Part shown: positions 1,648 through 47,891 of the stretch, piece after piece | Layout: each line of letters starts with the position of its first letter | Numbering within the stretch: position 1 is the stretch's first letter | Assembly (NCBI GenBank): GCA_033763455.1 | Contig: JANRKO010000062.1 | Location: 1 to 64,000 of the forward strand | Length of the DNA stretch: 64,000 nucleotides | Direction: 5' to 3' | DNA from: Polyangiaceae bacterium | Lineage (GTDB): Bacteria; Myxococcota_A; Polyangia; Polyangiales; Polyangiaceae | Notes under the pieces: generated by a model | Databases searched by the model: none | The model's input: only the letters and a program-made list of their open reading frames with translations | Told to the model about the DNA's origin: nothing | Made by a program: the position numbers and the translations under genes

Positions 1648-1687
1648 GGCAGCAACTCAAGTTTCGCTGGAAAGAAAAGGAAGAAAC

Positions 1688-15258: not shown

Positions 15259-16920
15259 TCACGAGGCCACGGCTTCACCATTCGCTGGTGTAGGTGCTCT
15301 CAGCATGATCACCTCGCTACGTTCTGCGTCGGCATCGGTCAGCTCCACGTTGAGGGCCTTCAGCGTGTCCTTGGCGTTTCGCAGGAGCAGGCTCAGCTTA
15401 TCGCCTCCTTTTCGAAGCTCTTCGCCAAGTTCTTCGGCATCCTTCCGAATGCGCTCCGCCAGCTTCTTCATCGTTTCGTGACGTTTGAGTTCCTGTTGTA
15501 TGCGGTGTTCAACGTCGGCCAAGGCTTTAATGTCGCCTTCGTCCAGCGGGCGGCGTTGGCGGCTGGCAAGCGCGAGCCCTAGGATCACGCCCGCGTGCAA
15601 GTAAGGGTCAGTCGAATCGTCTTCGTCATCCCAGGTGACGAGGACGTCTTGGCCGTAGCGCGCCATTGCGGGGAAGCCGGCAGGTGCGTGGCTCTTGGCC
15701 ATCACGAAAAGGCCAACTTGAGCACTTCGGTTGCTACGTGCGACCTCGAGCTCTGCCAGGGCTCGCGACACCGTGTAGGAGGAGTCGTGCTTCATCTCAA
15801 CGACGAGCGCAGCTCCTGCGAAGAGGCTTTCCTCATTAAACCGCAGCAGCTGGTCGCCGACTTTGCTGCCGGGGCGAGCGCCGACAATGCCGCCGAGGTT
15901 GTCGACGATAATCGGAGCGCCGTGGACCGCGCGCTGGATGAAGTTCAGGCCGTTATCCTGAAATGTATTGCCACCGCGTGCGCAGCGTGCGTCTCCGCGT
16001 CGCCGCTCTTCGAGGCGTGCGACCGATTCGCGAATATAGTGGTCCAGCTTCTGCTGCCGCTCTTCGACAACCAGGGCCTCCGTCTGCGATTTGGCCTGGG
16101 CCTCCAGCAGTGAGGAGAGCGACGCCTTCAGCACTGCGAGTGGTGAACCGGGTTCATCGGGATTCATGGCGTGCAAGAAGGCCAAACGAGCGGACTGGGT
16201 CTCACGCATGAGCCGGCTCAAGAGGGATGCTTCGTCGTTTGCGTCCAGGGCCTTCGTCACTGCGGCTAGCTGCTTCGTTCGGTCGTTGTCCGCCTTTTCG
16301 ATGTCGATGCGCAGTGCCCGAAGGAAACGCGTAACGTGGCCGTCTTCGTTCAAGGGATCCAGTGCTTTCGCCAAGGAAAGCTGATTTTGCGCGAGCGCTT
16401 CCCGAATGCGGGTTTCAAGCACGTGCACGATGCCTTCGTGATCGGTGGGGCTGAGGCGTTTAAGAAGCGGGCTGTTTTCTCCGAGTTGCCCTGCGAGCGT
16501 GCGGGCAAGAGCACCGTGCTCCGGCGCGAGATACTTCTCCATAGCGTGGGTCAATTGTCCTCCGTCCTTGACGAAGCCGTCGATGCGCTGGGCAACCTGG
16601 CCATCGTTGGGATCAAAGTATCGCTTCAACATTTCCACCAGGAGATCATGGTGGCGAACGACGTGCGTCTGGAGCTCCCGATCCAGGTCGGACAAGATGG
16701 TCTTGCCAACGTCGGCCAGGCGAGCTTCCTCGGCGTTGCGGTGGGCATTCATGATCGCTCGGACGCCGACCGTCCAGGCGTCGGCAACGAAGCTGCGCCG
16801 TTGGCCTTCGTCGAGCGGGAGCAACGTTGAAACAACGTCTGACCGCGAATCGCGGATGGAGGCGTCAAGGTTGGAGGTGTCCATTTGAACGTCGATGGCG
16901 AGGGGGCTTTGAGTTAACAT
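15259..16920 (-). CDS. Uncharacterised protein: long coiled coil plus C-terminal PD-(D/E)XK-like (RmuC/DUF2130-like) nuclease domain
   Basis: Helical L/E/R/K-rich N-terminal ~300 aa, then GGNTFQD...SKVGDQLL...LVVEMKH...ELEVARSNR, then a terminal coiled coil. The ORF is solid; the nuclease call is from the motif only. Confidence 0.6.
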   Translation of the reverse strand: MLTQSPLAIDVQMDTSNLDASIRDSRSDVVSTLLPLDEGQRRSFVADAWTVGVRAIMNAHRNAEEARLADVGKTILSDLDRELQTHVVRHHDLLVEMLKRYFDPNDGQVAQRIDGFVKDGGQLTHAMEKYLAPEHGALARTLAGQLGENSPLLKRLSPTDHEGIVHVLETRIREALAQNQLSLAKALDPLNEDGHVTRFLRALRIDIEKADNDRTKQLAAVTKALDANDEASLLSRLMRETQSARLAFLHAMNPDEPGSPLAVLKASLSSLLEAQAKSQTEALVVEERQQKLDHYIRESVARLEERRRGDARCARGGNTFQDNGLNFIQRAVHGAPIIVDNLGGIVGARPGSKVGDQLLRFNEESLFAGAALVVEMKHDSSYTVSRALAELEVARSNRSAQVGLFVMAKSHAPAGFPAMARYGQDVLVTWDDEDDSTDPYLHAGVILGLALASRQRRPLDEGDIKALADVEHRIQQELKRHETMKKLAERIRKDAEELGEELRKGGDKLSLLLRNAKDTLKALNVELTDADAERSEVIMLRAPTPANGEAVAS

Positions 16921-16932
16921 GCCAGGCGGTAT

Positions 16933-16948
16933 TCCAAGGAGCGTGCCA
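16933..16948 (-). promoter_or_regulatory. Candidate sigma54 (-24/-12) promoter for the 553-aa gene
   Basis: Minus strand TGGCACG-CTCC-TTGGA versus consensus TGGCACG-N4-TTGCW (one mismatch at -12); ATG 14 nt after the -12 base. Confidence 0.6.
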
Positions 16949-17000
16949 GGCCGGGCGAGGGGCTCCTTGTCCAGGATTTATGGGGTTTTCGCTAATTGCT

Positions 17001-17036
17001 CCCTGAGCCAGAATAAGTCGTCTTCTGAGATCAGAA
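17001..17036. promoter_or_regulatory. Candidate enhancer/operator for the sigma54 activator
   Basis: Inverted repeat TTCTGA-GA-TCAGAA (17023-17036) and related CCCTGAGCCAGAA (17001-17013); CTGAG cores 22 bp apart, ~80-115 bp upstream of the predicted sigma54 start. Confidence 0.4.
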
Positions 17037-17056
17037 AATCCGTTATGCTCTCGCCG

Positions 17057-18547
17057 ATGGGAGCAGTCCTGGTGACTTGGTTTGGTACAACCGACCTGCG
17101 CGCGGCGAAGGGCGAGGCCACTGTTGGTCTCGGTCCCGTGGCGCAGGCGGCCAAGGTTCGGGACTTCGAACAAATTGTCTTGGTCACCAACTACTCCAAA
17201 GCTGACACGCAGCTGTTCGTGGGCTGGCTAAAGAAGCAAACGTCTGCGCCGATCGTGGTCCGCACTGAGAAGCTCAGCTCACCCACCCATTATGGCGATA
17301 TCTATCGGGCCGTAACGAACACCCTGGAGTGGTTAGTCCCCAGCATCAGTCCCAAGACGCGTCTGACGTTTCACCTGAGCCCCGGTACACCCGCCATGGC
17401 CGCCATATGGATCCTGGTGGCTCCTCGGTACGGAGCCGAGCTGATCCAGTCATCCAAGGAAGCGGGGGTTGAGGCGGCGAACGTCCCGTTCGAGATTGCT
17501 GCGGAGTTCGTGCCTGCACTTGTTAGGCAAGGCAACGCCAAGTTGGAGGAGTTTGCCGCGGGTGCTCACCCTGAGGACCCGAGCTTCGCCAACATCATTG
17601 GGCGAAGTGACGCAGTTGCAACCATGGTTGAGCGGGCCCGTCAGGCTGCGCCTTACTTGGCGCCAGTTCTGATCGAAGGCGAATCCGGCACCGGAAAGGA
17701 GCTCCTCGCGGCAGCGGTGCATCACGCCAGTGCTCGGAAAGGGGAATTCGTGCCGGTGAATTGCGGAGCGATCCCGAGAGAACTGGTTGAGTCGACGTTC
17801 TTCGGGCACGTGCAAGGCGCGTTCACGGGCGCCAAGACCGCCTCCATCGGTGCCTTCCAGCGCGCCAACGGAGGTACGTTGTTCTTGGATGAAGTCGGAG
17901 AGCTGCCTCTAGAAGCGCAAGTAAAGCTGCTGCGCGCGCTTCAGGAAAAGAAGGTACAAAGGGTTGGCTCAAGCACCGAGACAGCAGTCGACGTGCGGGT
18001 GGTGGCAGCGACAAATCGCGATCTGATGGCCGAGGTTACGGCGGGGCGCTTTCGGGAGGATCTCTACTTCCGTCTCGGAGTTCTGCTCTTGCGCACCCCG
18101 CCGCTGCGCGACCGAGAGGGCGACGTATTGCTCTTAGCGGATCGCCAGCTTGACGCTCTCAACGCGGAGCGTCCCACTACCCAGCATAAGAAACTTTCTG
18201 CTGGGGCAAAATCTCTTCTCCTCAGACAGCCGTGGCCCGGGAATATTCGGGAGCTGCAGGCGACGCTGCTCCGGGCTTTTGTGTGGTCCAAGGGGACGTC
18301 GATCGACGAGAAAGCGCTGGCGGCGGCGCTCATTGTCCGAGCCACGATGAAAGATAGAGATGTACTCCACCGGCCGCTCGGAAATGGCTTTAAACTACAG
18401 GATTCGCTCGGGGAGGTTATCCGCCACTACCTCACCCGGGCGGTCGAAGAAGCCCACGGCAACAAGACCAAGGCCGCCGAGCTCATCGGCTTTACGCACT
18501 ACCAAACGCTCACGAACTGGGCGAAGAAGTATGGGGTGGAATTGTGA
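17057..18547 (+). CDS. Sigma54-dependent activator with RtcR-like CARF sensor, AAA+ domain and Fis-type HTH
   Basis: LTFHLSPGTPAMAAIWILV (RtcR/CARF-like), GESGTGKE, PVNCGAIP, intact GAFTGA, LFLDEVGE, FREDLYFRL, WPGNIREL, GNKTKAAELIG. Start ATG 17057 lies 7 nt after a TATGCT -10-like hexamer. Confidence 0.88.
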   Translation: MGAVLVTWFGTTDLRAAKGEATVGLGPVAQAAKVRDFEQIVLVTNYSKADTQLFVGWLKKQTSAPIVVRTEKLSSPTHYGDIYRAVTNTLEWLVPSISPKTRLTFHLSPGTPAMAAIWILVAPRYGAELIQSSKEAGVEAANVPFEIAAEFVPALVRQGNAKLEEFAAGAHPEDPSFANIIGRSDAVATMVERARQAAPYLAPVLIEGESGTGKELLAAAVHHASARKGEFVPVNCGAIPRELVESTFFGHVQGAFTGAKTASIGAFQRANGGTLFLDEVGELPLEAQVKLLRALQEKKVQRVGSSTETAVDVRVVAATNRDLMAEVTAGRFREDLYFRLGVLLLRTPPLRDREGDVLLLADRQLDALNAERPTTQHKKLSAGAKSLLLRQPWPGNIRELQATLLRAFVWSKGTSIDEKALAAALIVRATMKDRDVLHRPLGNGFKLQDSLGEVIRHYLTRAVEEAHGNKTKAAELIGFTHYQTLTNWAKKYGVEL

Positions 18548-18563
18548 TGGAACGAATCCTGCT
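18548..18563 (+). promoter_or_regulatory. Candidate sigma54 (-24/-12) promoter for the hsdR-hsdM-hsdS operon
   Basis: TGGAACG-AATC-CTGCT with GG (18549-50) and GC (18561-62) exactly 10 nt apart; begins right after the activator stop codon. Confidence 0.6.
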
Positions 18564-18599
18564 GATAGCTCGGGCATGTCTCACGGCGAGGTCCCGTTC

Positions 18600-21500
18600 A
18601 TGAAGTCGCAGAACTTTGAGTTCCTGCGCGCGAAGCGGGCCGTCCTCGCGGATCTGGGCGGGTTCGCCGAACAGTACGCACACTCGGATCCACAAGCCTC
18701 CCTGTTCAAGCAACGAGCTTTCGTCGAAAACGTGGTCGTCGCAATCTATACGGCGTACCGACTTCAGCCGCCTTTTTCAGACAACCTCAACGACCTCATG
18801 ATCGCCGACCCGTTTCGGGAATCTGTGCCCGACGTTGTTCAAAACAAGCTGCACACTGTGCGGAAGGCGGGGAACGCGGCCGTACACCCGCGCCAACCGA
18901 TCGCGAGCCAACAGGCTCTCGATTGCCTGTACGAGTTGTTTGATGCGGCGCGCTGGTTCTACCTCAAGGTTGATGGTGGCAAACGTGAGGACACGCCGAC
19001 GTACGCGCCACCGCAACCTTCGGGCGCCACGAACGGGAAGGCAAAGGAGGCGCTCGAAAAACTCCGCCTTTCGGAGGCGAAGTACGAGTCCGTACTTGCT
19101 GCACTTGAGGATGAGACCAAGAAGCGGCTCGCGGCTGAACGGGCCTCCGCAGTGCACGCCACCGAGCTCACCCAGCTCAAAGATGAGGGGCAGAAAGTTG
19201 CGACGTTCCTCCAGTTCAACGAAGAAACGACACGACGCCGACTTGTCGATCAGGCACTCATCGCGGCTGGATGGAATGTTGGCGAGGCGGGCAAAAACAC
19301 AGAACAAGTGAAACAAGAGCTGCCTCTGTCGGGGCTCCGTTCCACCAAATCCGGCGAAGGGCGCGCCGACTACGTCCTTTACGGCGATGACGGCAAACCA
19401 CTCGCCGTCGTCGAAGCCAAGCGCACAGCGAAGGACGTCCACGAAGGTGCTGAACAGGCCCGTGACTACGCCAACGCGTTGGAAAAAAAGGCTGGCGTTC
19501 GCCCGGTCATCTTCTTCACGAATGGCGCCGAGACTTTCCTATGGGACGACGCGCAAGGATATGCGTGGCGGAAAGTCTACGGCTTCTACTCGAAGGACAG
19601 CCTCGAGTATCTGATACACCAACGGACGAACAAGACACCTCTGGCCACAGTAGAGGCGAACCTTGCCATCGCAGACCGAATCTACCAACTTGAGGCCGTA
19701 AAACGCGTCACCGAACGCTTCGAGAGCAAAGTTCGCAAGGCGCTCATCGTTCAAGCAACAGGCACAGGTAAGACGCGTGTGGCCATTTCCCTTTGCGACG
19801 TTGTGATGCGTGCGGGCTGGGTGAAACGGATCCTCTTTCTGTGCGATCGGCGGGAGTTGCGTAAACAGGCGGACCGCGTCTTCAAGGAGTTCATGCCTGG
19901 CGAACCCCGCATCATCGTCGGCAAAGATACGTCGAGCGATCGCGGTAAGCGCATTTACCTCGCCACTTATCAGTCGATGATGGAGTGCTTCGAAGATTTT
20001 GACGTCGGCTTCTTCGACTTGATCATCGCCGACGAAGCGCATCGCAGCCTGTACAAGAAGTACCGCAGCATTTTTCAGCACTTCGACGCGCTCGAAGTGG
20101 GGCTAACAGCGACGCCGGTGCGTTTTATTGAACGAAACACCTACGGCATGTTTGGTTGCGAAGACCGCGACCCCACCTCCCATTTTAGTTTCGACGACGC
20201 TATCAGCGCCAAGCCGTCCTTTCTCGTTCCATTTCGAGTGATGGCGGTGAGCACCAACTTCAGTCGAGGCGGCTTTCGGTACAAGCAGATGACACCTGAA
20301 CAACAGGCTCAGCTTGAGGACCAAGAGCCGCAGGCTGAGCACGTTGACTACGAGAGCACTGATCTCGACAAACACTTCTTCAACCGAGACACGACCCGCC
20401 TGATCTGGCGCTCCCTTCTTCAGGATGGCATTCGCGAGGCGACTGGCAGTCATATTGGCAAGACCATCGTTTTCGCCAGAAGCCACACGCACGCGGTGCA
20501 CCTTGCAGATGTGTTCAGCGAGCTTTATCCCCACCACGGCTCGGTGTTTTGCCGAGTCATCGACAACAAGGAGCCGAGGGCGGAGCAGCTCATTGACGAT
20601 TTTAAGGATCCCGAGAATGAGCTCACGATTGCCATATCGGTTGACATGCTCGATACGGGCATCGACGTGCCGGAGGTGGTGAACCTCGTTTTCGCCAAGC
20701 CGGTTAAGTCTTACGTGAAGTTTTGGCAGATGATTGGACGGGGCACTCGCCTCCGGAAAGACCTATTTGGCCCGGGGCGGGACAAGACGGAGTTCCTGAT
20801 CTTCGATCACTGGAAAAACTTCTGGTTCTTCGATGAAAAGTACCAGGAAAAGGAGCCCTCGCCGCAAAAATCGCTGCTTCAACACCTCTTCGAGGCCCGC
20901 ATTGAGTTGGCGCGAACCGCGCTCGACAAGATGGAGCAAGATGTATTTCAAGCCGCCGCTGGGCTGATCATCGGCGACATTCGAGCGGTCGTGGACACCA
21001 ATGCCATCGATGCTCGCGATAAACGGCGTGAACTCGAAATGCTGACTGACCCGAACAGGGTGCACCACTTCGCGGCGGCCACACAGGCGGACTTGCTCTC
21101 GATTGCTGCGCCTCTCCAGCGTCTGCGAAGCATTCGCGGTGAAGAAGACGCCTACCGATTCGATCTACTGATGACGCGTCTGGAACTTGAGGTGCTCCGT
21201 GGCGGTGCAGAGGCGCCCAGGGTCCAGGATCTGCGTGCCCGCGTTGAAGCGGCTGTTGAGCTGCTCGCCAAAAACCAGAATCCGGTCAGAGCCAAGGCTG
21301 AGTCCATCAAGCAGGTGGGGAGCAGGGCGTTTTGGGCCACCGTGCAGGTCCACGAGTTAGAGGGCATGCGACGCGAGCTGCGCGGTATTATGAAGTATCA
21401 GCAGTTCGCGCCAACCGGCAGGGTCGCCCCGCGGATTTTCGACGTTACCGACACCGATTTTACCGCGGAAGAGTATGTTCCTCGTCTGGAAGGCTTGGAT

Positions 21501-22016
21501 CTCGTGGAGTACAAGCGCCGGGTCGAAGCGGTGCTTGAGGCGCATTTCGCCGAAAATCCTGTCCTTCAGCGCCTTCGCGCTGGAAACGCCGTGCGCGAGG
21601 ACGAGCTTGAGGCCCTGGCGAAGTTGGTGCTTGAGGTTGACGATAGGGCTAACGTCAAGTTCCTCATGGGGCATGACCCCGAGACCCGCCGCTCGCTGCT
21701 CACAGTGTTTCGCGGCCTAGTGGGCTTGGATGCTGAGGCTGTTGAGGAAGCCTTCACGGCTTTCGTCCATAGCCACCCGCGCCTTTCCGCGCAACAGCTG
21801 CGTTTCCTGCAGGTGCTTCAAAACTACATCGCCCAGAACGGCGGCATCGAGATAGAACGCCTGTACGAGCCACCCTTCACCACCATCCACGCCGAGAGCA
21901 TGGACGGCATTTTCACTAACCAGAAGGATCTGGATGAGCTACTCGCCATCCTCTCTACCTTCGAACCGAGGCGCGCGCTCCCGAGTGACCGCCCGCCTAC
22001 AAGCCAAGCCCTATGA
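18600..22016 (+). CDS. hsdR: Type I restriction enzyme R subunit (EcoAI/EcoEI-like); alternative in-frame ATG at 18576
   Basis: ADYVL...VVEAKR nuclease motif, [44 protein letters not shown] before 18600. Confidence 0.95.
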
Positions 22017-23554
22017 GCACACTGACAACGCAGCAGAAGAGCGACATCGACAAGCTCTGGACCGAATTTTGGACGGGCGGCATCACCAACCCCCTCACCG
22101 TGATCGAACAGATCTCGTTCTTGATGTTTGCGCGCCTGCTCGACGTGATGGAGACAACCGGAGAGCGCCGAGCCGAGCGCACGAAAAAGCCATTTAAGGG
22201 GCGTTTTAGCGGCCCTGACGACAAACGGCGTTGGAAGAACTTCAAGCACCTTCCGGCCACCGTCACCGATTCGGATCGAAGACAAAAACGCCAGAGCATG
22301 CTGGAAGTGGTGCGGGATGACGTGTTTCCACACTTCAGAAAGCTCAACGGCGGCACCACTTTCGGCGAGTACATGCAGGACGCCCAGCTCATGGTGCAGA
22401 AGCCGAGCCTGTTGGTGTCCGCTGTGAACATGATCGACAAGCTGCCGATCACTGAGGGCGACGCCAAGGGCGACCTCTACGAATACTTACTCGGCAAGCT
22501 CACCACCGCGGGGATCAATGGGCAGTTCCGCACGCCACGCCACATCATCCGCTTCATGGTGGAGATGCTGGACCCGAAACCAACAGAAACAATCGCCGAT
22601 CCGGCATGTGGTACCGCGGGTTTTCTCGTGGGTGCCATGCAGTATCTGGTAGAGACGCACACCTCGGCCAAGGGGAAAATTAAGGGAGAAAACGGGGAGA
22701 TCGTCTTCACCGGGGACAAGCTGGAGCCTTACCGAGCTCACATCCAGAACGGCATGTTTCACGGCTTCGATTTCGACGCCACCATGCTGCGCATCGCCTC
22801 GATGAATTTAATGCTTCACGGTGTCGATAGCCCGGACATTCACTATCAGGACACGCTCTCTAACTCGTTCCCCGAGAAGTTCCCGAAACAGGCAAGCGGC
22901 GGCTTCGATGTCGTCCTCGCTAACCCGCCGTTCAAGGGCAGCCTGGATGAAGGAGATGTTCATCCGACGCTTACGCAGGCAGTGAAAACGAAGAAGACCG
23001 AACTGCTCTTCTTGGCCTTAATTCTCCGAATGCTGAAGAAGGGCGGGCGGAGCGCGACGATTGTTCCTGATGGCGTGCTCTTTGGTTCGTCGAAGGCGCA
23101 CCGCGCTTTGCGAGAGCTACTCGTGAAGGACAACCAGCTCGAAGCGGTGATCTCGCTGCCTTCGGGGGTGTTCAAGCCGTATGCCGGCGTGTCGACGGCG
23201 ATCGTGGTGTTTGCGAAGGGCGGAAAAACGGACCACGTGTTCTTCTACGATGTTGGCGCAGATGGCTTTTCGCTCGACGATAAGCGGGACCCGATCGGTG
23301 ACAACGATTTGCCGGATGCATTGGCATGTTGGCGGAATAAAAGCGCGAAGAAGGATACGGACCGTTCGGCGAAGCACTTCATGGTGCCGTTGAAGGAGAT
23401 CGAAGCGAAAGATTTTGACCTCTCGATCAATCGCTACAAGGAGACGAAGCACGAAGAGGTGAAATACGAATCGCCCAAGAAGATTATCGCGAAGTTGCGC
23501 GCGCTTGAGGCGGAGATTGCGAAGGATTTGAGTGAGTTGGAGGGGATGTTGTGA
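22013..23554 (+). CDS. hsdM: Type I R-M N6-adenine methyltransferase
   Basis: [39 protein letters not shown] overlap with hsdR. Confidence 0.96.
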
Positions 23555-24975
23555 GCCTCGGGGAGACGCACCTGGTGGAATGGAAGGAGTCTTGGCGCGA
23601 CGAGTATTTGCGCTGGATCTGCGGATTTGCCAACGCCGATGGCGGGACATTGATCATCGGTAAGAATGACAAGGGCGAATCCGTGGGTGCGCCGGATGCG
23701 CACCGGCTGCTGGTGGATTTGCCGAACAAGATTCGCGATACGCTGGGTATCGTTGCCACGGTGCGGGCCATTCAAGAGGCGGGTCAAACGCTTGTCGAGA
23801 TCGGGGTGGAAGCATCGGCGGTTCCCATCAGCTTCCGCGGTGAGTACCATTTGCGCTCGGGCAGTGCGAAGTTGCAACTCACAGGTAACGCGCTCTCGGC
23901 ATTCTTGCTAAAGAAGTTCGGCCGTCACTGGGATCATGCGCCCGTTCCAGGGGTGTCGGTCGACGACCTGAGCGCCGAGGCCTTCAAGCGCTTTCGACGC
24001 TTCGCTCGCGGACGAGACCGTGTACCGTCGGAGGCGCTGGCACTCACCGACGGCCCTATGCTGGACAAACTGCAGCTGATGGACGGTGGTTGGCCGAAGC
24101 GCGCGGCACTTCTGTGTTTTCATGAGGAACCGGAGCGCTGGTTCACGGGTGCCTACGTCAAGATCGGCATGTTTCGTACCGGCGCGCAGATCCTCTACCA
24201 GGATGAGATCCACGGCGATCTGTTCTTGCAGATGGAGAAGACGCTGGATCTCTTGTTCACCAAGTATATGTCTGCGTGGATCACGTTTCGCGGCGTGCAG
24301 CGAGTCGAGACATTTCCGATTCCATACGAGGCGATGCGTGAGGCGCTGCTGAACGCGCTCATTCACAAGGACTACGCCTCGGGCATTCCGATCCAGATCA
24401 AGGTTTTCACCAGCGGCCTTTCGATGTGGAACCAAGGGCCTCTGCCAGAGGGCTGGACGGAGGCCACCTTACTGGGGCACCACCGCTCGCAGCCGCGGAA
24501 CCCAGATATTGCGAGCACCTTCTTTCGCGCCGGGCTCATCGAATCATGGGGCCGTGGATACGAGCACATCATGGAAGCGTGTCGGGAAAGTGGCCGGTCG
24601 CTGCCGGTTGTGAAATCCGACCCGAGTGCGGTCGGTATCACGTGGACGTGGCAGGCCGACGGTACCGGGGAAGTCACCCCGGAAGTCACCGGGGAAGTCA
24701 CCGAACAAGTTACCGAACAAGTCACCGAACAAGTCACCGAACAAGTCGTGAAGCTGTTGAACGCGCTTGGGCCGGGAGATCACTCCGCTGCCGAACTGAT
24801 GCGGACGCTTGAACTGCGCCATCGGCCCACGTTCCTTTACGCATATTTGCAGCCTGCTCTGGCGCGGGAGTTCATCGCGATGACCATTCCCACCAAGCCC
24901 AACAGTCGCCTGCAGAAGTATCGCCTGACCGCCAAGGGTCGTGCGTTGGTTGGGCATATGAGGCGAGAAACATGA
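23551..24975 (+). CDS. AlbA_2 (Schlafen-like) + HATPase_c_4 (RecG-C-like) + C-terminal winged helix protein
   Basis: [12 protein letters not shown]...[56 protein letters not shown]...[14 protein letters not shown]. Confidence 0.85.
24664..24747 (+). repeat. Seven tandem 12-bp units (ACC-NNN-SAA-GTY) encoding T-x-E/Q-V
   Basis: accggggaagtc, accccggaagtc, accggggaagtc, accgaacaagtt, then accgaacaagtc x3. Confidence 0.95.
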
Positions 24976-25112
24976 GAGGCGCGACGGTGAATGCGATGGA
25001 AGCGGAGTACGAAGCGGTTAAGTATGAGTCGCGGGGGAAACTTGTTGCGAGGGTGTGGGAGCTTGAGGTGGAGATTGTGAAGGAGTTTAGTGAGTTGGAG
25101 GGGATCCTGTGA
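24972..25112 (+). CDS. 46-aa ORF paralogous to the HsdM C-terminus (absent from the supplied ORF track)
   Basis: [46 protein letters not shown]; 20/37 aa identical, ungapped, to the HsdM end; ATGA overlap upstream and GTGA overlap with hsdS. Confidence 0.6.
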   Translation: MRGATVNAMEAEYEAVKYESRGKLVARVWELEVEIVKEFSELEGIL

Positions 25113-26263
25113 CTGTCAGCCCTTCCAAACTCGGGACCAAGTGGCCGCGCGTTGTTCTCAATGACGCCGTCGAGTTTCTCGACCATATGCGCAGGCCGAC
25201 CACCGCGAGCGATCGCGAGCCGGGACCGTACCCGTACTATGGCGCGAATGGCCAACAGGACTCGGTGGCTAAATACATATTTGACGAACCCCTGATCCTT
25301 TTAGCGGAGGACGGCGGCCACTTCGGAGACCCCGCGCGCGGCGTCGCGTACGGCGTGCAGGGAAAGTGCTGGGTCAATAACCACGCGCACGTGCTCCGAC
25401 CGAAGGCAGACTTCGACTTCAGGTTTTTGAAGTGGCACCTCGCACACTACGATCTGGCAGGGTTCGTCAATGGAACCACCAGGGGTAAGCTGACCAAGGG
25501 CGCAGCGGAGCGTATTCCTCTGGTGAAGCCCCCGCTCCCCGAGCAGCGCCGGATCGCCGACATCCTCGACAAGGCCGACACCATCCGCCGCAAGCGCAAG
25601 GAGGCCATCGCCCTCACGGAGGAACTCCTGCGCTCCGCATTCTTGGAAATGTTCGGCGATCCGGTGACGAATCCGAAGGGGTGGGAGGTGAAGCCGCTGG
25701 GTGACCTCGGGCGAATCACGACCGGGAACACACCTTCCCGCGCGGTGGGTGAGTACTTCGGAGCCGACATCGAGTGGATCAAGTCGGACAACATCAACAC
25801 GCGCAGTCACTACCTCACGCGAGCTACTGAGGGGCTCTCGGACCAGGGCCGCGCAATCAGTAGAACTGTGCCTGCAGGTAGCACCCTGATGACCTGTATC
25901 GCAGGTAGCCCCGATTGCATTGGCAATGTCGCTCTTGCCGATCGGGAGGTGGCATTCAACCAGCAGATAAATGCTGTGACTCCTCATGAGGGCGTTGACC
26001 ATCGCTTTCTCTACGTACTGCTCCTCGTCGGAAAGCGCCTCGTCCAGGCGGCTTCCACGAACAGCATGAAGGGCATGGTCAGCAAGGGGAAGCTCGAGGC
26101 CGTTCTGGTGCCTTCGCCTCCCCTGAAGGCGCAGAGCCAGTTCGCGGAAGTGTTTGATCGCGTATTGCGCCTGAGCCGCCGACAAGAAGTCGCGCAAGGG
26201 GAAGCGCTGATGCTATTCGATACAATGGTGCATCGCGCGTTCTCGGGAGGGCTCACCCCATGA
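25109..26263 (+). CDS. hsdS: Type I R-M specificity subunit (two TRDs)
   Basis: PYYGANG/WVNNHAHVL TRD1, PPLPEQRRIADILDKAD...EMFGDPVTNPKGW spacer, TGNTPSR/FNQQINA TRD2. Confidence 0.95.
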   Translation: MTVSPSKLGTKWPRVVLNDAVEFLDHMRRPTTASDREPGPYPYYGANGQQDSVAKYIFDEPLILLAEDGGHFGDPARGVAYGVQGKCWVNNHAHVLRPKADFDFRFLKWHLAHYDLAGFVNGTTRGKLTKGAAERIPLVKPPLPEQRRIADILDKADTIRRKRKEAIALTEELLRSAFLEMFGDPVTNPKGWEVKPLGDLGRITTGNTPSRAVGEYFGADIEWIKSDNINTRSHYLTRATEGLSDQGRAISRTVPAGSTLMTCIAGSPDCIGNVALADREVAFNQQINAVTPHEGVDHRFLYVLLLVGKRLVQAASTNSMKGMVSKGKLEAVLVPSPPLKAQSQFAEVFDRVLRLSRRQEVAQGEALMLFDTMVHRAFSGGLTP

Positions 26264-27237
26264 CCTGGGACGCCGCGGGACGCACAGTAGCCCAACCTAC
26301 CATCGCCACGGTGGGCGGAACAAGCATTGCCGCAGGCGCTCAAGTTCACATCGACCTCTCTTTTGGCATGGTTGAGTGGCCATGGGAAGAAAAGGGGCCC
26401 GTCTCGCTCGTTCCTCAGCCAAGCGAGGTAACTGCACGCACGGATCGGGGCGAGCTCAGCCTTGGTTTTGCAATTCCGGCACCAGCTAGCGTGCTCACGC
26501 CTGCGGAGCATTCGTCAACAGGCATCATTCGGTTCACGCTGTCGCTCAGTACGTTAGCCCTCGTCGAGCTCGAGGCCACGCGCAACGGTGGCGCACTCAC
26601 GCTCATTATGCAACTCGTGGCGCATCCACTGTTTATCACCCGATCTCAGGAATATTCTCCTGGAATCAACATTTACCCGACCAGCGTTTCCTTCCCCTTC
26701 AAAGTTCCCAAGGAGGAGTGGATCGCGTTGCTCAAGAGCGTCGGATATTGTGACACGCTCGTCACGGAGCTGCGCTTGCCCACCTCGGGTCCCGAATCTA
26801 CCGCCAAGGGCCGGAAACGGCTCGCTCACGCAGTCAGTGCACGGAACGACGGCAGTTACGCCGAAGCCATGCGGCGCTGTCGCACTGCACTCGACGAGCT
26901 AAAGAACGCCGGGTTCGGGGGTAAAGCGCCCGCCGACGTCGCTAAATTCCTTCAGGAGAAGGCGGGCACGATGTTACCGGTCGAACGCTTCTCTGTCTTG
27001 CAGGTTGCGCTCCAGCTCTTCTTGTCACCAGCACATCACGCCAACGCACCAGATGAGCACTACACCCGCGAAGACGCCGAACTGGCGATCGCGATGACTG
27101 CCGCGCTGTTGCGGCTTGCACCTCAGCACGCCGACCGCCGGAGGACGGCATCTGATGCCCGGGCTGCATCATCTCGACGCCAACCTTCACGAGTTTCTGG
27201 AGGCCGCAGTATGGAACCTAAGAAACGAGAGGGATGA
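26260..27237 (+). CDS. Uncharacterised protein: beta-rich N-terminus and HEPN-like helical C-terminus
   Basis: ATGA overlap with hsdS; GSYAEAMRRCRTALD...SPAHH...TREDAELAIAMTAALL pattern. Confidence 0.5.
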   Translation: MTWDAAGRTVAQPTIATVGGTSIAAGAQVHIDLSFGMVEWPWEEKGPVSLVPQPSEVTARTDRGELSLGFAIPAPASVLTPAEHSSTGIIRFTLSLSTLALVELEATRNGGALTLIMQLVAHPLFITRSQEYSPGINIYPTSVSFPFKVPKEEWIALLKSVGYCDTLVTELRLPTSGPESTAKGRKRLAHAVSARNDGSYAEAMRRCRTALDELKNAGFGGKAPADVAKFLQEKAGTMLPVERFSVLQVALQLFLSPAHHANAPDEHYTREDAELAIAMTAALLRLAPQHADRRRTASDARAASSRRQPSRVSGGRSMEPKKREG

Positions 27238-27243
27238 TCAGTA

Positions 27244-28269
27244 ATGAACGAGAAACAGAAGAAGCTTGTCGCCGAGACCAAGGAATCTCTGCAGCGCATT
27301 CAGAACTTTGACGCAACGACCATCGCGCGAACCGATGAACTTGGGCGAGAGTTGAACTTTGCGCAGGGAGTGGAGCCGCTTGAACGTTCTCTTGCTCTAT
27401 TCCGAGAAGTCTCGGTGGACGTTCTCGAGAGCATGAGCGCCAGTAGCCTGAATCAGGTTAAGGGCCAATCGGACGCGTTGTTCAATCTGCTCCAGCAGAT
27501 GCTGAACTTCTCGGCGGCGGCAGAAGGGAACCCGAAGGCAACCCGCGATAGCCTCATTCAGCAGCTTGCCAATAGCTACGAAGGCACCTTTAACGACCTG
27601 TGTCCCACAATCGCGTATTCCGTGCGGCGTGCCACGGATTTTTCGCGCATGGAGCGCGAAGCTCGCGCGGCCATACAGTCGATCGAAGACCGGTCCAGGG
27701 AGCTCGAATCGAGCATGAAGGCGAAGCAGGAGGAAGCTGAGGCAGCTCTGGCGGCAATCCGAAAGGTTGCCGCCGAGCAGGGAGTGTCGCAGCAAGCGAT
27801 CTACTTTAGAGAGGAGTCTCAGACTCATGCAGATGAAGCCGAAAAATGGCTCAAATGGACCAAATGGCTGACCGTGGTTCTGGGACTGTTTGCCGGCTCC
27901 ACCCTCGTGCTCCACAAGGTTCCCTTGCTGCGCCCCGAGAATTCGGCTGAGGTGATCCAGTTCGCCCTGGGCAAGATGTTGGTATTCGCGACAGGCGCTT
28001 ATTTCCTGATTCTTGCCGCCCGCAACTACATGGCCCACCGGCACAACGCGATTGTAAACAGGCATCGCCAGAACAGCTTGATCACCTATCAGGCGCTCGT
28101 TGAGGCGGCGGGTGATCAGGCGAATCGTGATATTGTGCTCACGAAGGCGGCCGAGAGCATTTTTGGCGCACAAACGACCGGCTTCACCAAGCACGACGCG
28201 GATGAAGGGAAGGCGTTTTCGATGGTCAACTTAGGCACGAGTGCGCTGAAAGGGACAGGCTCGGGGTGA
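27244..28269 (+). CDS. Uncharacterised coiled-coil protein with two transmembrane helices
   Basis: MEREARAAIQSIEDRSRELESSMKAKQEE coil; hydrophobic WLTVVLGLFAGSTLVL and FALGKMLVFATGAYFLILAA. Confidence 0.7.
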   Translation: MNEKQKKLVAETKESLQRIQNFDATTIARTDELGRELNFAQGVEPLERSLALFREVSVDVLESMSASSLNQVKGQSDALFNLLQQMLNFSAAAEGNPKATRDSLIQQLANSYEGTFNDLCPTIAYSVRRATDFSRMEREARAAIQSIEDRSRELESSMKAKQEEAEAALAAIRKVAAEQGVSQQAIYFREESQTHADEAEKWLKWTKWLTVVLGLFAGSTLVLHKVPLLRPENSAEVIQFALGKMLVFATGAYFLILAARNYMAHRHNAIVNRHRQNSLITYQALVEAAGDQANRDIVLTKAAESIFGAQTTGFTKHDADEGKAFSMVNLGTSALKGTGSG

Positions 28270-28417: not shown

Positions 28418-29542
28418 ATGACGACCGCCCGCGGCAAGAAGCCAGCCTCGGTGAAGAAAACAGCGACGGCTCGGAAACGATCGACCGCGCTGTTGAAGCC
28501 CGACGCGGCATTCGCCTCGGAGTTGGTGCGCGACCTCTCGGAAATGATCGAGGCGGCCCAGAAGCAGGTCGCCACCGTCGCGAACGTGGCACTCACCGCG
28601 CTCCACTGGCAGATCGGTGACCACGTTCGCAGGCACGTGCTCGAAGGCCGCCGCGCGGAGTACGGCGGGCAGATTGTCTCCACGGTGTCGAGACAATTGG
28701 CAGAGCGCTACGGGCGCGGCTTCAACGAGAAATCGCTGCGCCACATGGTCCAGTTCGCGACCGCCTTTCCGGACCGCGAGATTGTCTCCACGGCGTGGAG
28801 ACAATTGACTTGGAGCCACTTCAAGGTGCTGGCATACCTCAAGGACCCCCTCGCCCGCGACTTCTACTTAGAGATGTCCCGCGTCGAGCGGTGGTCCGTG
28901 CTGCAGCTCGGTGAACGCATCCAGAGTATGCTCTTCGAGCGCACGGCGCTTTCGAAGAAGCCCGAGAAGCTTATTGAGGCGGAGCTCGCGACGCTGCACG
29001 AGACCGGCGAGCTGACGCTCGATCTCGTGATGCGTGACCCGTACATGCTGCCCTTCCTCGGGCTCGCCGACACCTACAGCGAGAGCGATCTCGAAGCGGC
29101 CATCCTGCGCGAGATCGAACGCTTCCTCCTGGAGCTGGGCGTGGGCTTCACCTTCGTCGAGCGCCAGAAGCGCATGACGCTCGACGGCGACGATCACTAC
29201 CTCGATCTCTTGTTCTTCCACCGCCGGTTGCGCCGTCTTGTCGCCATCGAGCTGAAGATCGGCGATTTCAAGGCCCAGGACTTGGGCCAAATGGAGTTGT
29301 ATTTGCGCTGGCTCGACAAGCACGAACGCCAGGTTAACGAAGAACCGCCGCTGGGCATCATCCTCTGCGCGGGCAAGAAGCGAGAGACGGTTAAGATCCT
29401 AAACCTCGACGCGCGTGGCATTCACGTCGCAGAGTACCTGACCGAGTTGCCACCCCGGAAGCTCCTCGAAGAGCGCCTGCACAAGGCCATCGAAAACGCT
29501 CGCAACGGGATCGTCAAAGGTAAGCTGGGAGGCCAGAGGTGA
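28418..29542 (+). CDS. yhcG: YhcG/DUF1016 family PD-(D/E)XK nuclease, copy 1
   Basis: LHWQIG, YGRGF, LTWSHF, RDPYMLPFLG, FLLELGVGFTFVERQ, DLLFFHRRLRRLVAIELK. Confidence 0.92.
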   Translation: MTTARGKKPASVKKTATARKRSTALLKPDAAFASELVRDLSEMIEAAQKQVATVANVALTALHWQIGDHVRRHVLEGRRAEYGGQIVSTVSRQLAERYGRGFNEKSLRHMVQFATAFPDREIVSTAWRQLTWSHFKVLAYLKDPLARDFYLEMSRVERWSVLQLGERIQSMLFERTALSKKPEKLIEAELATLHETGELTLDLVMRDPYMLPFLGLADTYSESDLEAAILREIERFLLELGVGFTFVERQKRMTLDGDDHYLDLLFFHRRLRRLVAIELKIGDFKAQDLGQMELYLRWLDKHERQVNEEPPLGIILCAGKKRETVKILNLDARGIHVAEYLTELPPRKLLEERLHKAIENARNGIVKGKLGGQR

Positions 29543-30729
29543 CGCGGCCGACGATCTCACGAAAGAAGGTCGGGTCGAAGTCCAAGATCTCCCGTGGGGT
29601 GACTGCACCAATTCATCAACAGCCTGTTGGCGAATCGGCCGCGGGTTTGGTTACGCGCCCCAAAGGCTACGCCGGCTGGCTCGCGGAAGTGAAGGCGCGC
29701 GTCCAAGCGGCGCAGCAGCGCGCAGCGCTTGCCGTGAACAAGGAGTTGCTGAAGCTCTATTGGCAAGTGGGCCGAGATCTCAGTGACCGACGTCATGAAT
29801 GGGGCGCTGGCGTCATTGAGCGGGTGTCCGCGGACCTGCGCGCAGCCTTTCCGGAAATGCAGGGGTTTTCGCCGTCGAACCTTCGCTATATGCGCGCGTT
29901 TGCTGAGGCTTGGCCCGACGGCGCAATTCACCAACAACCTGTTGGTGAATTGCCTTGGGGTCACAACGTCGTGCTCCTGACGCGACTCAAGAACAGAACC
30001 GAACGACTTGCCTATGCGCAAGCCGCCCTGACACACGGCTGGTCCCGCAACGTCCTCGACCACCACATAGATCTTCGCACTGTCGAGCGCTCGGGAAAAT
30101 CCATCACGAACTTCGAACGGCAACTGCCCAAGCTGCAGTCGGATCTTGCGCGCGAGTCGCTGAAGGACCCCTACCGCTTCGACTTCCTGAGCCTTGGCGA
30201 CGAAGCGCACGAACGCGAGATCGAGACTGCGCTGGTGAAGCACGTCAAGCAGTTTCTGCTTGAGCTGGGAACGGGATTCGCGTTCGTCGGGCGCCAGCGG
30301 CTGCTCGACGTCGGCGGCGATGAGTTCTTTATCGACCTGCTCTTTTATCACCTCAAGCTACGCCGCTACGTGGTTATCGAGCTTAAGGCGACGAAGTTCA
30401 AACCAGAGCACCTGGGTCAACTGGGCTTCTACTGCACAGCGATCGACGCACAAGTAAAGGCCGACGATGACGCTCCGACCGTTGGCCTTCTCCTGTGTAA
30501 GACGAAGAATGAACTCGTTGCCGAGTACGCTGTGCGAAGTTCGACGAGCCCGATCGGAGTGTCGGAGTACCGGCTCGTAGAATCGCTGCCGAAGGACCTT
30601 GAAGCCAGCCTGCCGAGCATCGCGCGCATCGAGGAAGAGCTGAGCAGGTTGCCAACACCAAGGCCATCCCCGCGTGCCAAGAAGAATGCAACCAAGAAGC
30701 AGATCGACAAACGGAGAAGTCGCCGATGA
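29539..30729 (+). CDS. yhcG: YhcG/DUF1016 family PD-(D/E)XK nuclease, copy 2
   Basis: LYWQVG, GFSPSNLRYMRAFA, LPWGHN, KDPYRFDFL, FLLELGTGFAFVGRQ, DLLFYHLKLRRYVVIELK; GTGA overlap with copy 1. Confidence 0.92.
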   Translation: MTRPTISRKKVGSKSKISRGVTAPIHQQPVGESAAGLVTRPKGYAGWLAEVKARVQAAQQRAALAVNKELLKLYWQVGRDLSDRRHEWGAGVIERVSADLRAAFPEMQGFSPSNLRYMRAFAEAWPDGAIHQQPVGELPWGHNVVLLTRLKNRTERLAYAQAALTHGWSRNVLDHHIDLRTVERSGKSITNFERQLPKLQSDLARESLKDPYRFDFLSLGDEAHEREIETALVKHVKQFLLELGTGFAFVGRQRLLDVGGDEFFIDLLFYHLKLRRYVVIELKATKFKPEHLGQLGFYCTAIDAQVKADDDAPTVGLLLCKTKNELVAEYAVRSSTSPIGVSEYRLVESLPKDLEASLPSIARIEEELSRLPTPRPSPRAKKNATKKQIDKRRSRR

Positions 30730-31091: not shown

Positions 31092-31710
31092 ATGCGTGTG
31101 TGGTCAATCCCAACAGTTGTTTTCGAGGAATTGCTCGTCAACGCGCTCGTACACCGTGACTACCTGATCAGCGCGCCGATCCGACTCTTTATGTTTGACG
31201 ACCGCATCGAGATCATCAGTCCGGGCACGCTTCCAAACAATCTCACCGTTGAGAACATCTGTGCGGGCAACTCGAACTTGCGCAACCCGATCCTTGCGAG
31301 CTTCGTTGCGAAGGGCGTGCTGCCGTACCGTGGCCTCGGATCGGGCGTCCCGCGCGCGCTCGAATCCTGGCATGACATTGATTTCCGCGACGACCGCAAC
31401 GGAGGCCTCTTTGTGGCCACCGTTCGGCGGTCACCTGGTAATTTACGGGGTAGAGGGCAAGTCACTGTGGGCGCTACCGCGCAAGCTACCGCGCAAGTCC
31501 GAGAGTTGATCGAACAGCTCGAAGGCGAACTTACGACAGCAGGCCGTGGGCCTCACCCACCGGGAGCACTTCCGCAAGGCCTACCTTCTTCCCGCGCTGG
31601 AGTCCGGCCTGATTGAGATGACCCACCCTGAAACGCCGAACAACCAGAACCAGCGATACCGCCTTACGCCGGCCGGCAAGGCCCTGCGCTCGAAGCGCAG
31701 AAAGTTGTGA
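31092..31710 (+). pseudogene. 5'-truncated, frameshifted HATPase_c_4 / winged-helix gene of the same family as 23551-24975
   Basis: EELLVNALVHRDY, RIEIISPGTLP, RNPILAS, GSGVPR; the tail HREHFRKAYLLPALESGLIEMTHPETPNNQNQRYRLTPAG is in another frame, ending TGA 31710. Confidence 0.8.
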
Positions 31711-32987: not shown

Positions 32988-33028
32988 ATCCTTGCAAATC
33001 TAACACGTTGTGTTTAATTTGCAAGGAT
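32988..33028. promoter_or_regulatory. AT-rich inverted repeat overlapping the ATPase start codon (candidate operator or hairpin)
   Basis: ATCCTTGCAAAT (32988-32999) / ATTTGCAAGGAT (33017-33028) with inner AACAC/GTGTT arms. Confidence 0.6.
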
Positions 33029-47861: not shown

Positions 47862-47891
47862 GGGTGCCCGTTGTACGGGCAAACGCGTGCG

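Follow-up and report, generated by a model that had tools for sequence, protein, structure and literature searches.

The window analyzed here, a stretch of 64,000 nt from contig JANRKO010000062.1 of a Polyangiaceae bacterium, carries the gene of a putative sigma54-dependent activator with an N-terminal CARF domain, placed between a divergent gene of 553 codons, whose product is called X553 below, and a type I restriction-modification (R-M) operon. A sigma54-type promoter motif precedes each of the two outward-facing units, and two candidate enhancers accompany the activator gene (Table 1). An earlier interpretation, made from the letters of this DNA alone (the sequence-only reading), had described these genes and promoters, and all the features it described were present where it had placed them, including the 4-nt overlaps that join hsdR to hsdM (22013–22016), hsdM to the AlbA_2 gene (23551–23554), the AlbA_2 gene to the 46-aa open reading frame (ORF; 24972–24975), the latter to hsdS (25109–25112), and hsdS to the 325-aa ORF (26260–26263). 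We consider it likely that the whole forms a self-contained, mobile, CARF-regulated defence cassette, in which two enhancers and two sigma54 promoters drive X553 and the R-M genes.

Table 1. Features of the cassette in the window, with coordinates, strand and the evidence or position detail for each
Feature	Coordinates	Strand	Basis or detail
X553: helices, PD-(D/E)xK-like domain, C-terminal long helix	15259..16920	-	alignment, AlphaFold 2 (AF2) model, Foldseek
Sigma54-type promoter of X553, TGGCACG-CTCC-TTGGA	16948-16933	-	predicted start ~16922, ATG 16920
Candidate enhancer 1 (upstream activating sequence, UAS)	17015..17044	strandless	dyads at the same place in relatives
CARF-AAA+-helix-turn-helix (HTH) sigma54 activator	17057..18547	+	CARF ~17057-17500, Sigma54_activat 17594-18085, GAFTGA 17816-17833
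Candidate enhancer 2, inside the activator coding sequence	18188..18222	+	synonymous-codon constraint scan
Sigma54-type promoter of the R-M operon, TGGAACG-AATC-CTGCT	18548..18563	+	predicted start ~18574, ATG 18576
hsdR, EcoAI/EcoEI-like, N-terminal DUF4145	18576..22016	+	Pfam ResIII, Helicase_C, EcoEI_R_C, HSDR_N, DUF4145; PADLOC REase_I 5.4e-270
hsdM	22013..23554	+	N6_Mtase 4.9e-62, HsdM_N; PADLOC MTase_I 3.7e-182
AlbA_2 (Schlafen-type)/HATPase_c_4/Fic-like_C gene, variable cargo	23551..24975	+	Pfam
46-aa ORF	24972..25112	+	no family match
hsdS	25109..26263	+	Methylase_S 1.6e-35, two stretches
325-aa ORF, recurrent cargo behind hsdS	26260..27237	+	homologues in other loci
341-aa ORF	27244..28269	+	sub-threshold matches only
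Two tandem DUF1016/YhcG PD-(D/E)xK genes, PADLOC PDC-S02, variable cargo	28418..30729	+	Pfam, PADLOC

One genome per species was scanned with an alignment of X553, which gave 63 loci (identifiers beginning with L), and these were searched by tblastn with the proteins of the window. The hosts were mostly Myxococcota, with further loci in Acidobacteriota/Thermoanaerobaculia, Eisenbacteria, Gemmatimonadota, Planctomycetota and Pseudomonadota; cultivable carriers include Sorangium cellulosum So ce26, Myxococcus qinghaiensis, Corallococcus sp. CA053C, Polyangium sp. 15x6 and Minicystis rosea. An intact activator diverged from X553 in 46 of the 63 loci. An hsdR of the window type stood right behind the activator in 32 loci and in the window, followed by hsdM and usually hsdS; in other loci the activator was followed by an hsdR of another R-M type, ~31–34% identical (L015, L024, L031, L044, L051, and L057), or by hsdM as the first gene (L018 and L049). 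X553 occurred without the activator in nine loci with enough upstream sequence (L012, L026, L038, L039, L040, L052, L053, L058, and L059). Decay was also observed, with frameshifts in the activator, hsdR, hsdM and X553 of L011 and L060, a split X553 in L051, and a C-terminal fragment of the activator abutting X553 in L061. When the pairwise-identity matrices of the 28 sequences with all four genes (27 loci and the window) were compared by Mantel tests, the correlation was 0.90 between X553 and the activator, 0.85 between hsdR and hsdM, and 0.60–0.63 across the two pairs (p=0.001 each). Because the correlations are high within the pairs and 0.60–0.63 across them, the cassette consists of two co-evolving modules that have been re-paired. 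Together, these results support one inherited, horizontally mobile cassette.

The activator matched Sigma54_activat (PF00158) in Pfam at 3.4e-66, together with AAA_lid_14, and the PADLOC model PDLC01995 RtcR_PspF2--CARF_AAA_HTH over its full length at 2.2e-180; weaker PADLOC matches were to RtcR_PspF1, RtcR, CARF4 (3.6e-15, in the N-terminal region) and Csx1/Csm6. The model names probably stem from Makarova et al. in 2020. The translation shows Walker A (GESGTGKE), the segment GGTLFLDEV and GAFTGA, and the loop reported earlier as intact is so in both the sequence and its translation. At the C terminus, HTH_8 matched weakly, at an E-value of 0.0041 and with 17.3 bits, below the cut-off of 22, but the PADLOC model was matched to its final position (481/481). 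An assignment as a CARF-AAA+-HTH enhancer-binding protein is supported. We rejected the identification as an RtcR orthologue: the score with NCBIfam NF038308 was 311 bits against a cut-off of 650, and neither rtcA nor rtcB was among the neighbours.

An AF2 model of residues 5–180, built from 45 sequences, had a predicted local distance difference test (pLDDT) score of 87.3. Searching the PDB with it in Foldseek gave 67 matches at E<=1e-3, the best being Csm6 (1.3e-6), and the other top matches included SSO1393 (Csx1-like), Sis0811, Cdn1, Cami1, Can2, Cam1, Cad1, Csa3, Card1 and VC1899. Among the matches listed, all were CARF proteins except one glycosyltransferase (7vlb). The model thus shows the N-terminal domain to be a CARF fold; since its Foldseek matches are CARF proteins, the prediction of such a domain was borne out, and the outcome named beforehand as refuting, a domain other than CARF, was not seen.

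The activator most likely starts at ATG 17057 and has 496 aa, because this is the commonest length among homologues and all tblastn alignments begin there. A start at 16919, taken from the long ORF in the sequence-only reading, is unlikely. The alternative upstream ATG at 17045 is part of a −10-like DNA motif rather than a conserved start. This −10-like hexamer (TAnnnT, within GTTA[TC]NCT or TGTAT(C/T)) is conserved 7–9 nt before the activator start (17035–17060 in the window; L001–L057), and for this reason the activator mRNA may also be leaderless. The start codon itself is ATG in the window and GTG in many relatives.

The right-hand promoter, TGGAACG-AATC-CTGCT, was confirmed, has the canonical GC at −12 and begins directly after the TGA of the activator (18545–18547). 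The left-hand promoter, TGGCACG-CTCC-TTGGA on the minus strand, stood in position and sequence, but its −12 dinucleotide is GG and not the canonical GC. At both, the ATG (16920 and 18576) lies 14 nt past the −12 base, as had been described. Chance occurrence was assessed with 200 first-order Markov simulations of the window. GG-N10-GC alone was uninformative, with 1000 occurrences observed and 981 expected, as was TGG[CA]AC-N5-NTG[CAG], with 5 observed and 3.9 expected. The composite of the promoter and A/GTG exactly 13 nt later was found twice in the window, at these two sites, compared to 0.10 expected (simulation maximum, 2). The decisive support for the promoters is comparative rather than within the window, and conservation in homologous loci, which had been proposed as a check, was indeed found for both motifs, in several phyla.

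For hsdR, we took the 35 sequences in which the hsdR match started <=15 residues from the N terminus and searched for [TC]GG[CA]-N8-[TC]GN with an in-frame start. The promoter was present in 33 of the 35, and all 33 31-mers were distinct; it was not found in L053, which has no activator, or in L061, which is rearranged. In 31 of the 33 it abuts the stop codon of the activator (...TGA|TGGCACG...), and in 31 of the 33 the start codon of hsdR stands at position 29 when the T of TGG is taken as position 1. With no frame requirement imposed, the distance between position 29 and the conserved codon of M-K-S-x-N-F-E was divisible by three in 33 of the 34 loci, with nine different lengths between 18 and 66 nt; the sole exception was a mis-anchored regular-expression match. 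In the window, hsdR has the promoter-proximal ATG 18576 and a conserved internal start at 18600. Since the frame is kept in 33 of 34 loci, the promoter-proximal ATG serves as a start codon, or at least the stretch behind it is translated.

For X553, the motif with a start codon at positions 28–33 was found in 47 of 61 sequences (20 at position 29 and 14 at position 30), and all 47 were distinct. Of the sequences with an activator, 44 of 47 had it, compared to none of the nine activator-less loci with enough upstream sequence. The three misses with an activator were L029, which has the motif with a longer leader, L051, with its frameshifted X553, and L054, where no motif was seen by eye; of the activator-less loci, at least L012 and L026 showed, again by eye, Shine-Dalgarno-like leaders instead. 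The loose motif had a background of 0.0006 per nt in the retrieved loci. Across the sites, the −24 block was near-invariant and the G at position 14 invariant, while the intervening and flanking bases varied. The base after this G at the 47 X553 sites was C in 20, A in 20, G in one and T in one, and five sites had CGC. The −12 types also tended to be reciprocal within a locus: in the clade of the window the X553 promoter has GTGA and the hsdR promoter TGGAAC...CTGC, and in the other clade the X553 promoter has CTGC and the hsdR promoter TTGA.

The motif extends to relatives lacking X553. Of five plasmid-borne, X553-free relatives of the CARF domain that were examined, four showed a sigma54-like motif that lies at the activator stop codon or overlaps it. 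On the plasmids of Pseudomonas luteola and Azotobacter chroococcum, hsdR came next and had its in-frame ATG at position 28, and hsdR also followed the motif on a Vitreoscilla plasmid. On a Rhodoferax plasmid (L064, 10494–10700) the motif overlapped the activator stop and was followed by an unannotated small ORF, with a VWA-PP2C-kinase-AAA operon downstream. No motif was found on the Polaromonas plasmid (L067), where a DUF4258 (BrnT-like) gene takes its place and the activator fronts a VWA-PP2C-kinase-AAA operon. Comparing family sizes, the CARF domain had 998 clusters and X553 had 314; as the former family is ~3 times larger, X553 partners only a subset of CARF activators.

With conventional numbering, in which the C of GC is −12, the transcripts are predicted to start at ~16922 and ~18574, which is 0–3 nt (predicted 2 nt) before the ATGs. 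Given the predicted distance of 2 nt, both mRNAs would be leaderless or nearly so. By analogy with RtcR, both probably depend on sigma54 and on the activator.

Candidate enhancer 1 contains the dyad AAG-TCGT-CTT (17015–17024), the perfect palindrome TTCTGAGATCAGAA (17023–17036) and a degenerate second dyad ending in GTTAT. On one side the predicted X553 start is ~100–120 nt away, and on the other the activator start follows directly. In the relatives, AAG-N4-CTT dyads adjoin the activator start in the X553/activator intergenic region and differ between clades, being GAAG-N4-CTTC in the clade of the window and CAAG/TAAG-N4-CTTG in the other. In 12 loci, exact dyads occur as a pair with a distance of 20 bp. 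Clade-specific dyads were also looked for just upstream of the hsdR promoter in the relatives, and none were found.

A second candidate came from a scan for synonymous-codon constraint in 46 activator genes, using 8-codon windows and the Kullback–Leibler divergence from gene-wide codon use. One outlier was observed at activator residues ~381–395 (18188–18222), with 1.85 bits. The next best window of the activator reached 0.41 bits, and the maxima of X553, hsdR and hsdM, three control genes with ~1,600 windows, were 0.36, 0.46 and 0.61 bits, respectively. Rare codons were conserved in the outlier (CTT in 33/46, TCT in 33/46, GCA in 38/46 and CTT in 38/46), and AGA was kept as well. The window reads AAGAAACTTTCT ... 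CAAAATCTCTTCT, and the family consensus aGAAGAAaCTTTCTG-N5-GCAAGaAAtCTTCTtCT amounts to two AAG-N4-CTT-like dyads ~21 bp apart. We infer that this stretch, ~330–360 nt upstream of the hsdR promoter, is a second candidate enhancer embedded in coding sequence. The recognition helix (S/N)YQTL(T/K)NW is conserved in the activators, and K in place of T accompanies GAAG...CTTC dyads in L004–L006; L003, L007 and L009, which also have K, show no exact dyad. This covariation of helix and dyad is suggestive and probably reflects a single evolutionary event. The near-palindrome AGAACTTCGAGTTC(T), at 18603–18625 in the 5' coding region of hsdR and present there in many loci, encodes Q-N-F-E-F-L and resembles the AGAA/TTCT half-sites; it was rejected as a binding site, as the hsdR codon scan showed no excess constraint there.

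X553 had no family in Pfam, PADLOC, NCBIfam or PHROGs, and the members of its homologue clusters are nearly all nameless or called 'hypothetical protein'. D356, E375 and K377 (motif VVEAK) were invariant in 50 aligned relatives and likewise in 56 domain sequences. The AlphaFold model (mean pLDDT, 72) consists of long helices to residue ~310, an alpha/beta domain at ~320–456 (pLDDT 85–92) and a further long helix. The top Foldseek matches of the whole model were all PD-(D/E)xK nucleases, the best being McrC (7.1e-3), followed by Bax1, XisH, Hjc, MspJI, EcoO109I, HindIII, BamHI and FokI; none reached E<=1e-3, because the whole 553-aa model was used as the query. A sequence and profile search of the PDB with the nuclease domain found nothing. 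The domain profile gathered 1432 representative clusters at E<=1e-3, and of 46 of these distant relatives that were scanned, two reached Mrr_cat, one DUF2130 and 41 no family, with two chance-level unrelated matches. The neighbours of X553 in the protein atlas were likewise only 'hypothetical', with minor shares of Mrr_cat (15%) and DUF2130 (13%). The suggestion that the divergent gene is nuclease-like was thus upheld by the catalytic motif and the trend among folds, without a significant fold match, and the model indicates that X553 likely carries an Mrr-like PD-(D/E)xK nuclease domain.

The neighbourhoods of X553 lacking the activator bear on its role. In L058 it stands immediately behind a HindI-type hsdR in a neighbourhood with HEPN and Abi_C genes, and in L012 and L026 it stands beside N6_Mtase pairs, in L026 also with SMODS. 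Because activator-less X553 adjoins R-M and defence genes, a role as effector or R-M accessory is favoured over a purely regulatory one, and the nuclease would act in defence. The alternative that X553 is not a second effector, and instead regulates the activator, as RtcA/RtcB act on the CARF domain of RtcR and PspA on PspF, or repairs restriction breaks as an RmuC-like repair or recombination nuclease, seems improbable to us. The tight co-evolution with the activator would fit a regulating partner, as would the place of X553, which is that of rtcBA relative to rtcR, where RtcAB bind the CARF domain of RtcR and are needed for activation (PMC9650030, passages on the CARF domain); however, homologues occur without any activator beside other R-M genes, and the catalytic D and E-x-K residues are invariant. 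A coiled coil joined to a PD-(D/E)xK domain does resemble RmuC-type proteins, whereas X553 matched neither RmuC in Pfam nor the Shield/ShdA models in PADLOC at E<=0.01. Prediction of a complex between X553 and the CARF domain of the activator gave no answer, scoring 0.00 in two runs, and is no evidence either way.

The R-M operon has all three type I subunits, HsdR, HsdM and HsdS, with their signature domains in Pfam and PADLOC. NF046051 (EcoAI family) was matched at 4.9e-82, below the cut-off of that model. The genes between and behind them are more variable. The AlbA_2 gene is full length in the window only; elsewhere it was matched in part, in L022 (three fragments) and in L063 (residues 242–465), and it does not belong to the conserved core. 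A 2025 preprint describes bacterial Schlafen nucleases as antiviral effectors and, in the part consulted, states tRNA cleavage for human Schlafens (PMC12330615). If active, the Schlafen-type AlbA_2 gene product could make RNA ends of the sort that RtcR-type CARF domains have been proposed to sense. The 46-aa ORF had no family in Pfam, PADLOC, NCBIfam or PHROGs and no match in any of the 63 loci. Homologues of the 325-aa ORF follow hsdS in L020, L023 and L030, and L022 holds another match; the same four databases gave no family for it, and the protein atlas gave nothing. DUF1016/YhcG homologues stand between hsdM and hsdS or after hsdS in ~10 loci.

From these parts we propose the following mechanism. 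The activator would bind AAG-N4-CTT dyads both at enhancer 1, between the divergent genes, and at enhancer 2, within its own coding sequence. As the intergenic enhancer overlaps the upstream and promoter region of the activator itself, autoregulation is likely. By analogy with RtcR, the CARF domain would keep the ATPase off until it binds a nucleotide or RNA-end ligand that arises from infection or nucleic-acid damage. The active hexamer would then open sigma54-RNA polymerase complexes at the two promoters, and both transcripts would start 0–3 nt before a start codon, one encoding the coiled-coil Mrr-like nuclease and the other hsdR-hsdM-(cargo)-hsdS. Candidate ligands are 2',3'-cyclic phosphate RNA ends, as PMC11090510 proposes for RtcR homologues in the portion consulted, or cyclic oligonucleotides, as for the solved CARF matches.

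Several observations weigh against a cassette of this kind. The loci were retrieved through similarity to X553, so part of the conservation is common descent; selection is argued from spacers and flanks that vary while the motif bases stay invariant, from the contrast between presence and absence of the activator, and from the control genes of the codon scan. At −12, TGA replaces the canonical TGC in about half of the sites (20/47 for X553 and 18/33 for hsdR), and the TGG of the left promoter of the window is the single such case among 47 sites. No rpoN gene lies within the window. Searches of the PDB by sequence and profile with the CARF domain gave no link to a solved CARF or RtcR structure. 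Enhancers usually lie 80–150 nt from a sigma54 promoter, and enhancer 2, at ~340 nt, is farther away; it also has AGAA/TTCT in both clades, whereas the intergenic dyads differ by clade. Finally, hsdM and hsdS stand behind hsdR in the same inducible unit, and without an internal constitutive promoter the host DNA would be unmethylated. Methylation of the host must therefore depend on an internal promoter not seen here or on basal transcription. A scan for sigma70 promoters at 14.8–32 kb found three compared to 3.8 expected, at or below chance, and a scan for terminators over the same range, with 13 found and 17.1 expected, was at or below chance as well.

The position of hsdM and hsdS also bears on another account, in which the activator is an establishment or timing controller like the C-proteins of type II systems, which delays or limits restriction on entry or couples it to host physiology, with a CARF domain that reads a housekeeping metabolite. 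Such a controller would suit a cassette that is mobile across phyla and on plasmids, that has hsdR as the first gene behind its promoter, and whose enhancer overlaps the upstream region of the activator, as autoregulation expects. Yet hsdM and hsdS downstream of hsdR in one unit are the opposite of a methylation-first delay, the same family of activators fronts VWA-PP2C-kinase-AAA defence operons that are not R-M systems, and in all solved matches the CARF domain has a nucleotide second messenger or a ligand derived from RNA as its partner; we regard this account as unlikely. That the motifs are signals of another kind than sigma54 promoters, for example the context of translation or leaderless starts, or a junction at which the regulatory and R-M modules recombined, is very hard to sustain: −12 is often not GC, the junction of activator and hsdR shows shuffling and the N-terminal extension of hsdR varies in length, but the invariant bases are exactly those of the −24/−12 class (TGGCAC, then G 11 nt later, the rest being variable), the motif is found only alongside a GAFTGA activator (44/47 vs 0/9), and it fronts two unrelated genes on opposite strands.

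The putative CARF-regulated defence cassette has several known relatives. RtcR with rtcBA in E. coli and Salmonella has the same three-domain activator and a divergent layout; the target is preceded by a sigma54 promoter, and the enhancer lies between the two divergent units. Deletion of the CARF domain makes RtcR constitutively active, and the domain also acts as a repressor in trans (PMC9650030, in the part on domain deletion), a repressive sensor module of the kind proposed here. The cassette differs in having no rtcA or rtcB, in its presumed targets, a nuclease and a type I R-M operon, and in its second promoter at the activator stop and candidate enhancer inside the activator gene.

PspF is a sigma54 activator encoded divergently to its target; it regulates its own gene by way of an enhancer common to both and is controlled by PspA. 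The cassette shares with PspF/pspABCDE the divergent layout and putative activator sites that overlap the activator's own upstream region, and the name of the PADLOC model groups the family with PspF. PspF has no sensor domain and is held by PspA, whereas here a CARF domain is fused to the activator.

The link between this activator family and R-M had been published before. Makarova et al. in 2014 described an RtcR-like family with an NtrC-like AAA+ domain and HTH, 'often associated with restriction-modification systems', and predicted sigma54-dependent activation of the downstream genes (PMC4012209, as far as consulted). Supplementary File 4 of that paper, in the portion compared, lists activator-hsdR-hsdM-hsdS in Desulfobacterium, Desulfococcus, Geobacter and Marinomonas and activator-hsdM-hsdS-hsdR in Hahella. 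The activators there (PspF/RtcR-like) belong to the same family, with the order activator-hsdR(DUF4145/EcoEI_R_C)-hsdM-hsdS; that work concerns gene neighbourhoods only, and no divergent 553-aa nuclease appears in the portion of the table compared. Bell et al. in 2024 (PMC11090510, sections consulted) reported superoperons of RtcR homologues with CoCoNuT type IV systems and ancillary type I R-M and, in Pseudomonas, a coiled-coil RmuC-like ShdA. As in the cassette, the first gene of a co-directional defence operon, which may include type I R-M, encodes an RtcR-like CARF activator, and a coiled-coil nuclease accompanies the R-M genes; unlike those superoperons, the cassette has no McrB/McrC, HEPN or CnuH, and its X553 is divergent, has a sigma54-type promoter of its own and matches no RmuC or Shield model. 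A CoCoNuT reading was rejected, since McrB/McrC, UPF1-like helicase and HEPN genes are absent at 18.5–31 kb.

In the main text of PMC4012209 neither 'promoter' nor 'enhancer' occurs, and in that of PMC11090510 'promoter' occurs once, for internal RtcR-independent promoters, and neither 'enhancer' nor 'leaderless' occurs. The consulted portions of PMC4012209 (text and supplementary table) and of PMC11090510 make no mention of the 553-aa partner. Our literature searches found no experimental study of a circuit of CARF activator and type I R-M, and no paper on sigma54-driven leaderless mRNAs was among the matches listed, which is weak evidence of absence. The claim of a 'candidate new system' was thus overstated, as the activator/type I R-M link with predicted sigma54 control dates from 2014 (PMC4012209, as consulted) and RtcR-type superoperons from 2024 (PMC11090510, as consulted). 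What appears to be new here is the pair of sigma54-type promoters with a fixed 29-nt spacing to in-frame starts, the predicted near-leaderless arrangement, the fusion of a promoter to the activator stop, the candidate enhancer that rare codons keep within the activator gene, and the co-evolving, probably Mrr-like coiled-coil nuclease partner. The sequence-only reading is partly supported: it was right in architecture and is unproven in signalling, and the association it described is not new.

A broader proposal, which we advance tentatively and hold to have somewhat less than an even chance, is that the locus represents a portable transcriptional immune switch. A nucleotide or RNA-end signal arising from infection and received by the CARF domain would turn on sigma54-dependent, near-leaderless expression of type I restriction and of a dedicated coiled-coil Mrr-like nuclease, by means of an enhancer in synonymous sites of the activator gene and of a promoter joined to the stop codon of that gene. 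Regulator, promoter and start codon could then move as one unit, by in-frame recombination, to different defence operons, namely several type I R-M families and VWA-PP2C-kinase-AAA operons. If so, restriction in these bacteria would be an induced response and not a constitutive barrier. Type I restriction is usually treated as such a barrier, and a CARF-gated version would be an inducible innate response; CARF-gated, sigma54-dependent restriction would also extend CARF signalling from CRISPR effectors to R-M transcription. The candidate rare-codon enhancer inside a gene and the fixed 29-nt spacing from promoter to start are unusual cases of regulatory DNA that overlaps or abuts genes. A prediction that has stood since 2014 is now directly testable, with both promoters and their predicted starts, two candidate enhancers with a consensus dyad, a conserved nuclease partner outside any named family and cultivable carriers at hand.

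Regarding the surroundings, base composition is flat across the window (G+C fraction, 0.56–0.62), so the cassette is no compositional island, and no tRNA gene was found within the window. Downstream of the R-M genes, a truncated HATPase_c_4 ORF lies at 31092–31616, and a DUF4143/AAA_14 ATPase gene follows at 33027–34199, just past the cassette. A lone UPF1-like AAA_11/AAA_12 helicase gene is located 15 kb from the cassette, on the minus strand at 45948–47882, beside a DUF2330 gene; judged by its neighbours it does not belong to a CoCoNuT. At the other end, positions 76–3076 hold PSD/PSCyt-type genes (DUF1587, DUF1592, DUF1595, and DUF1588) and a DUF1552 gene, followed by a TonB-dependent receptor gene, an ordinary flank.

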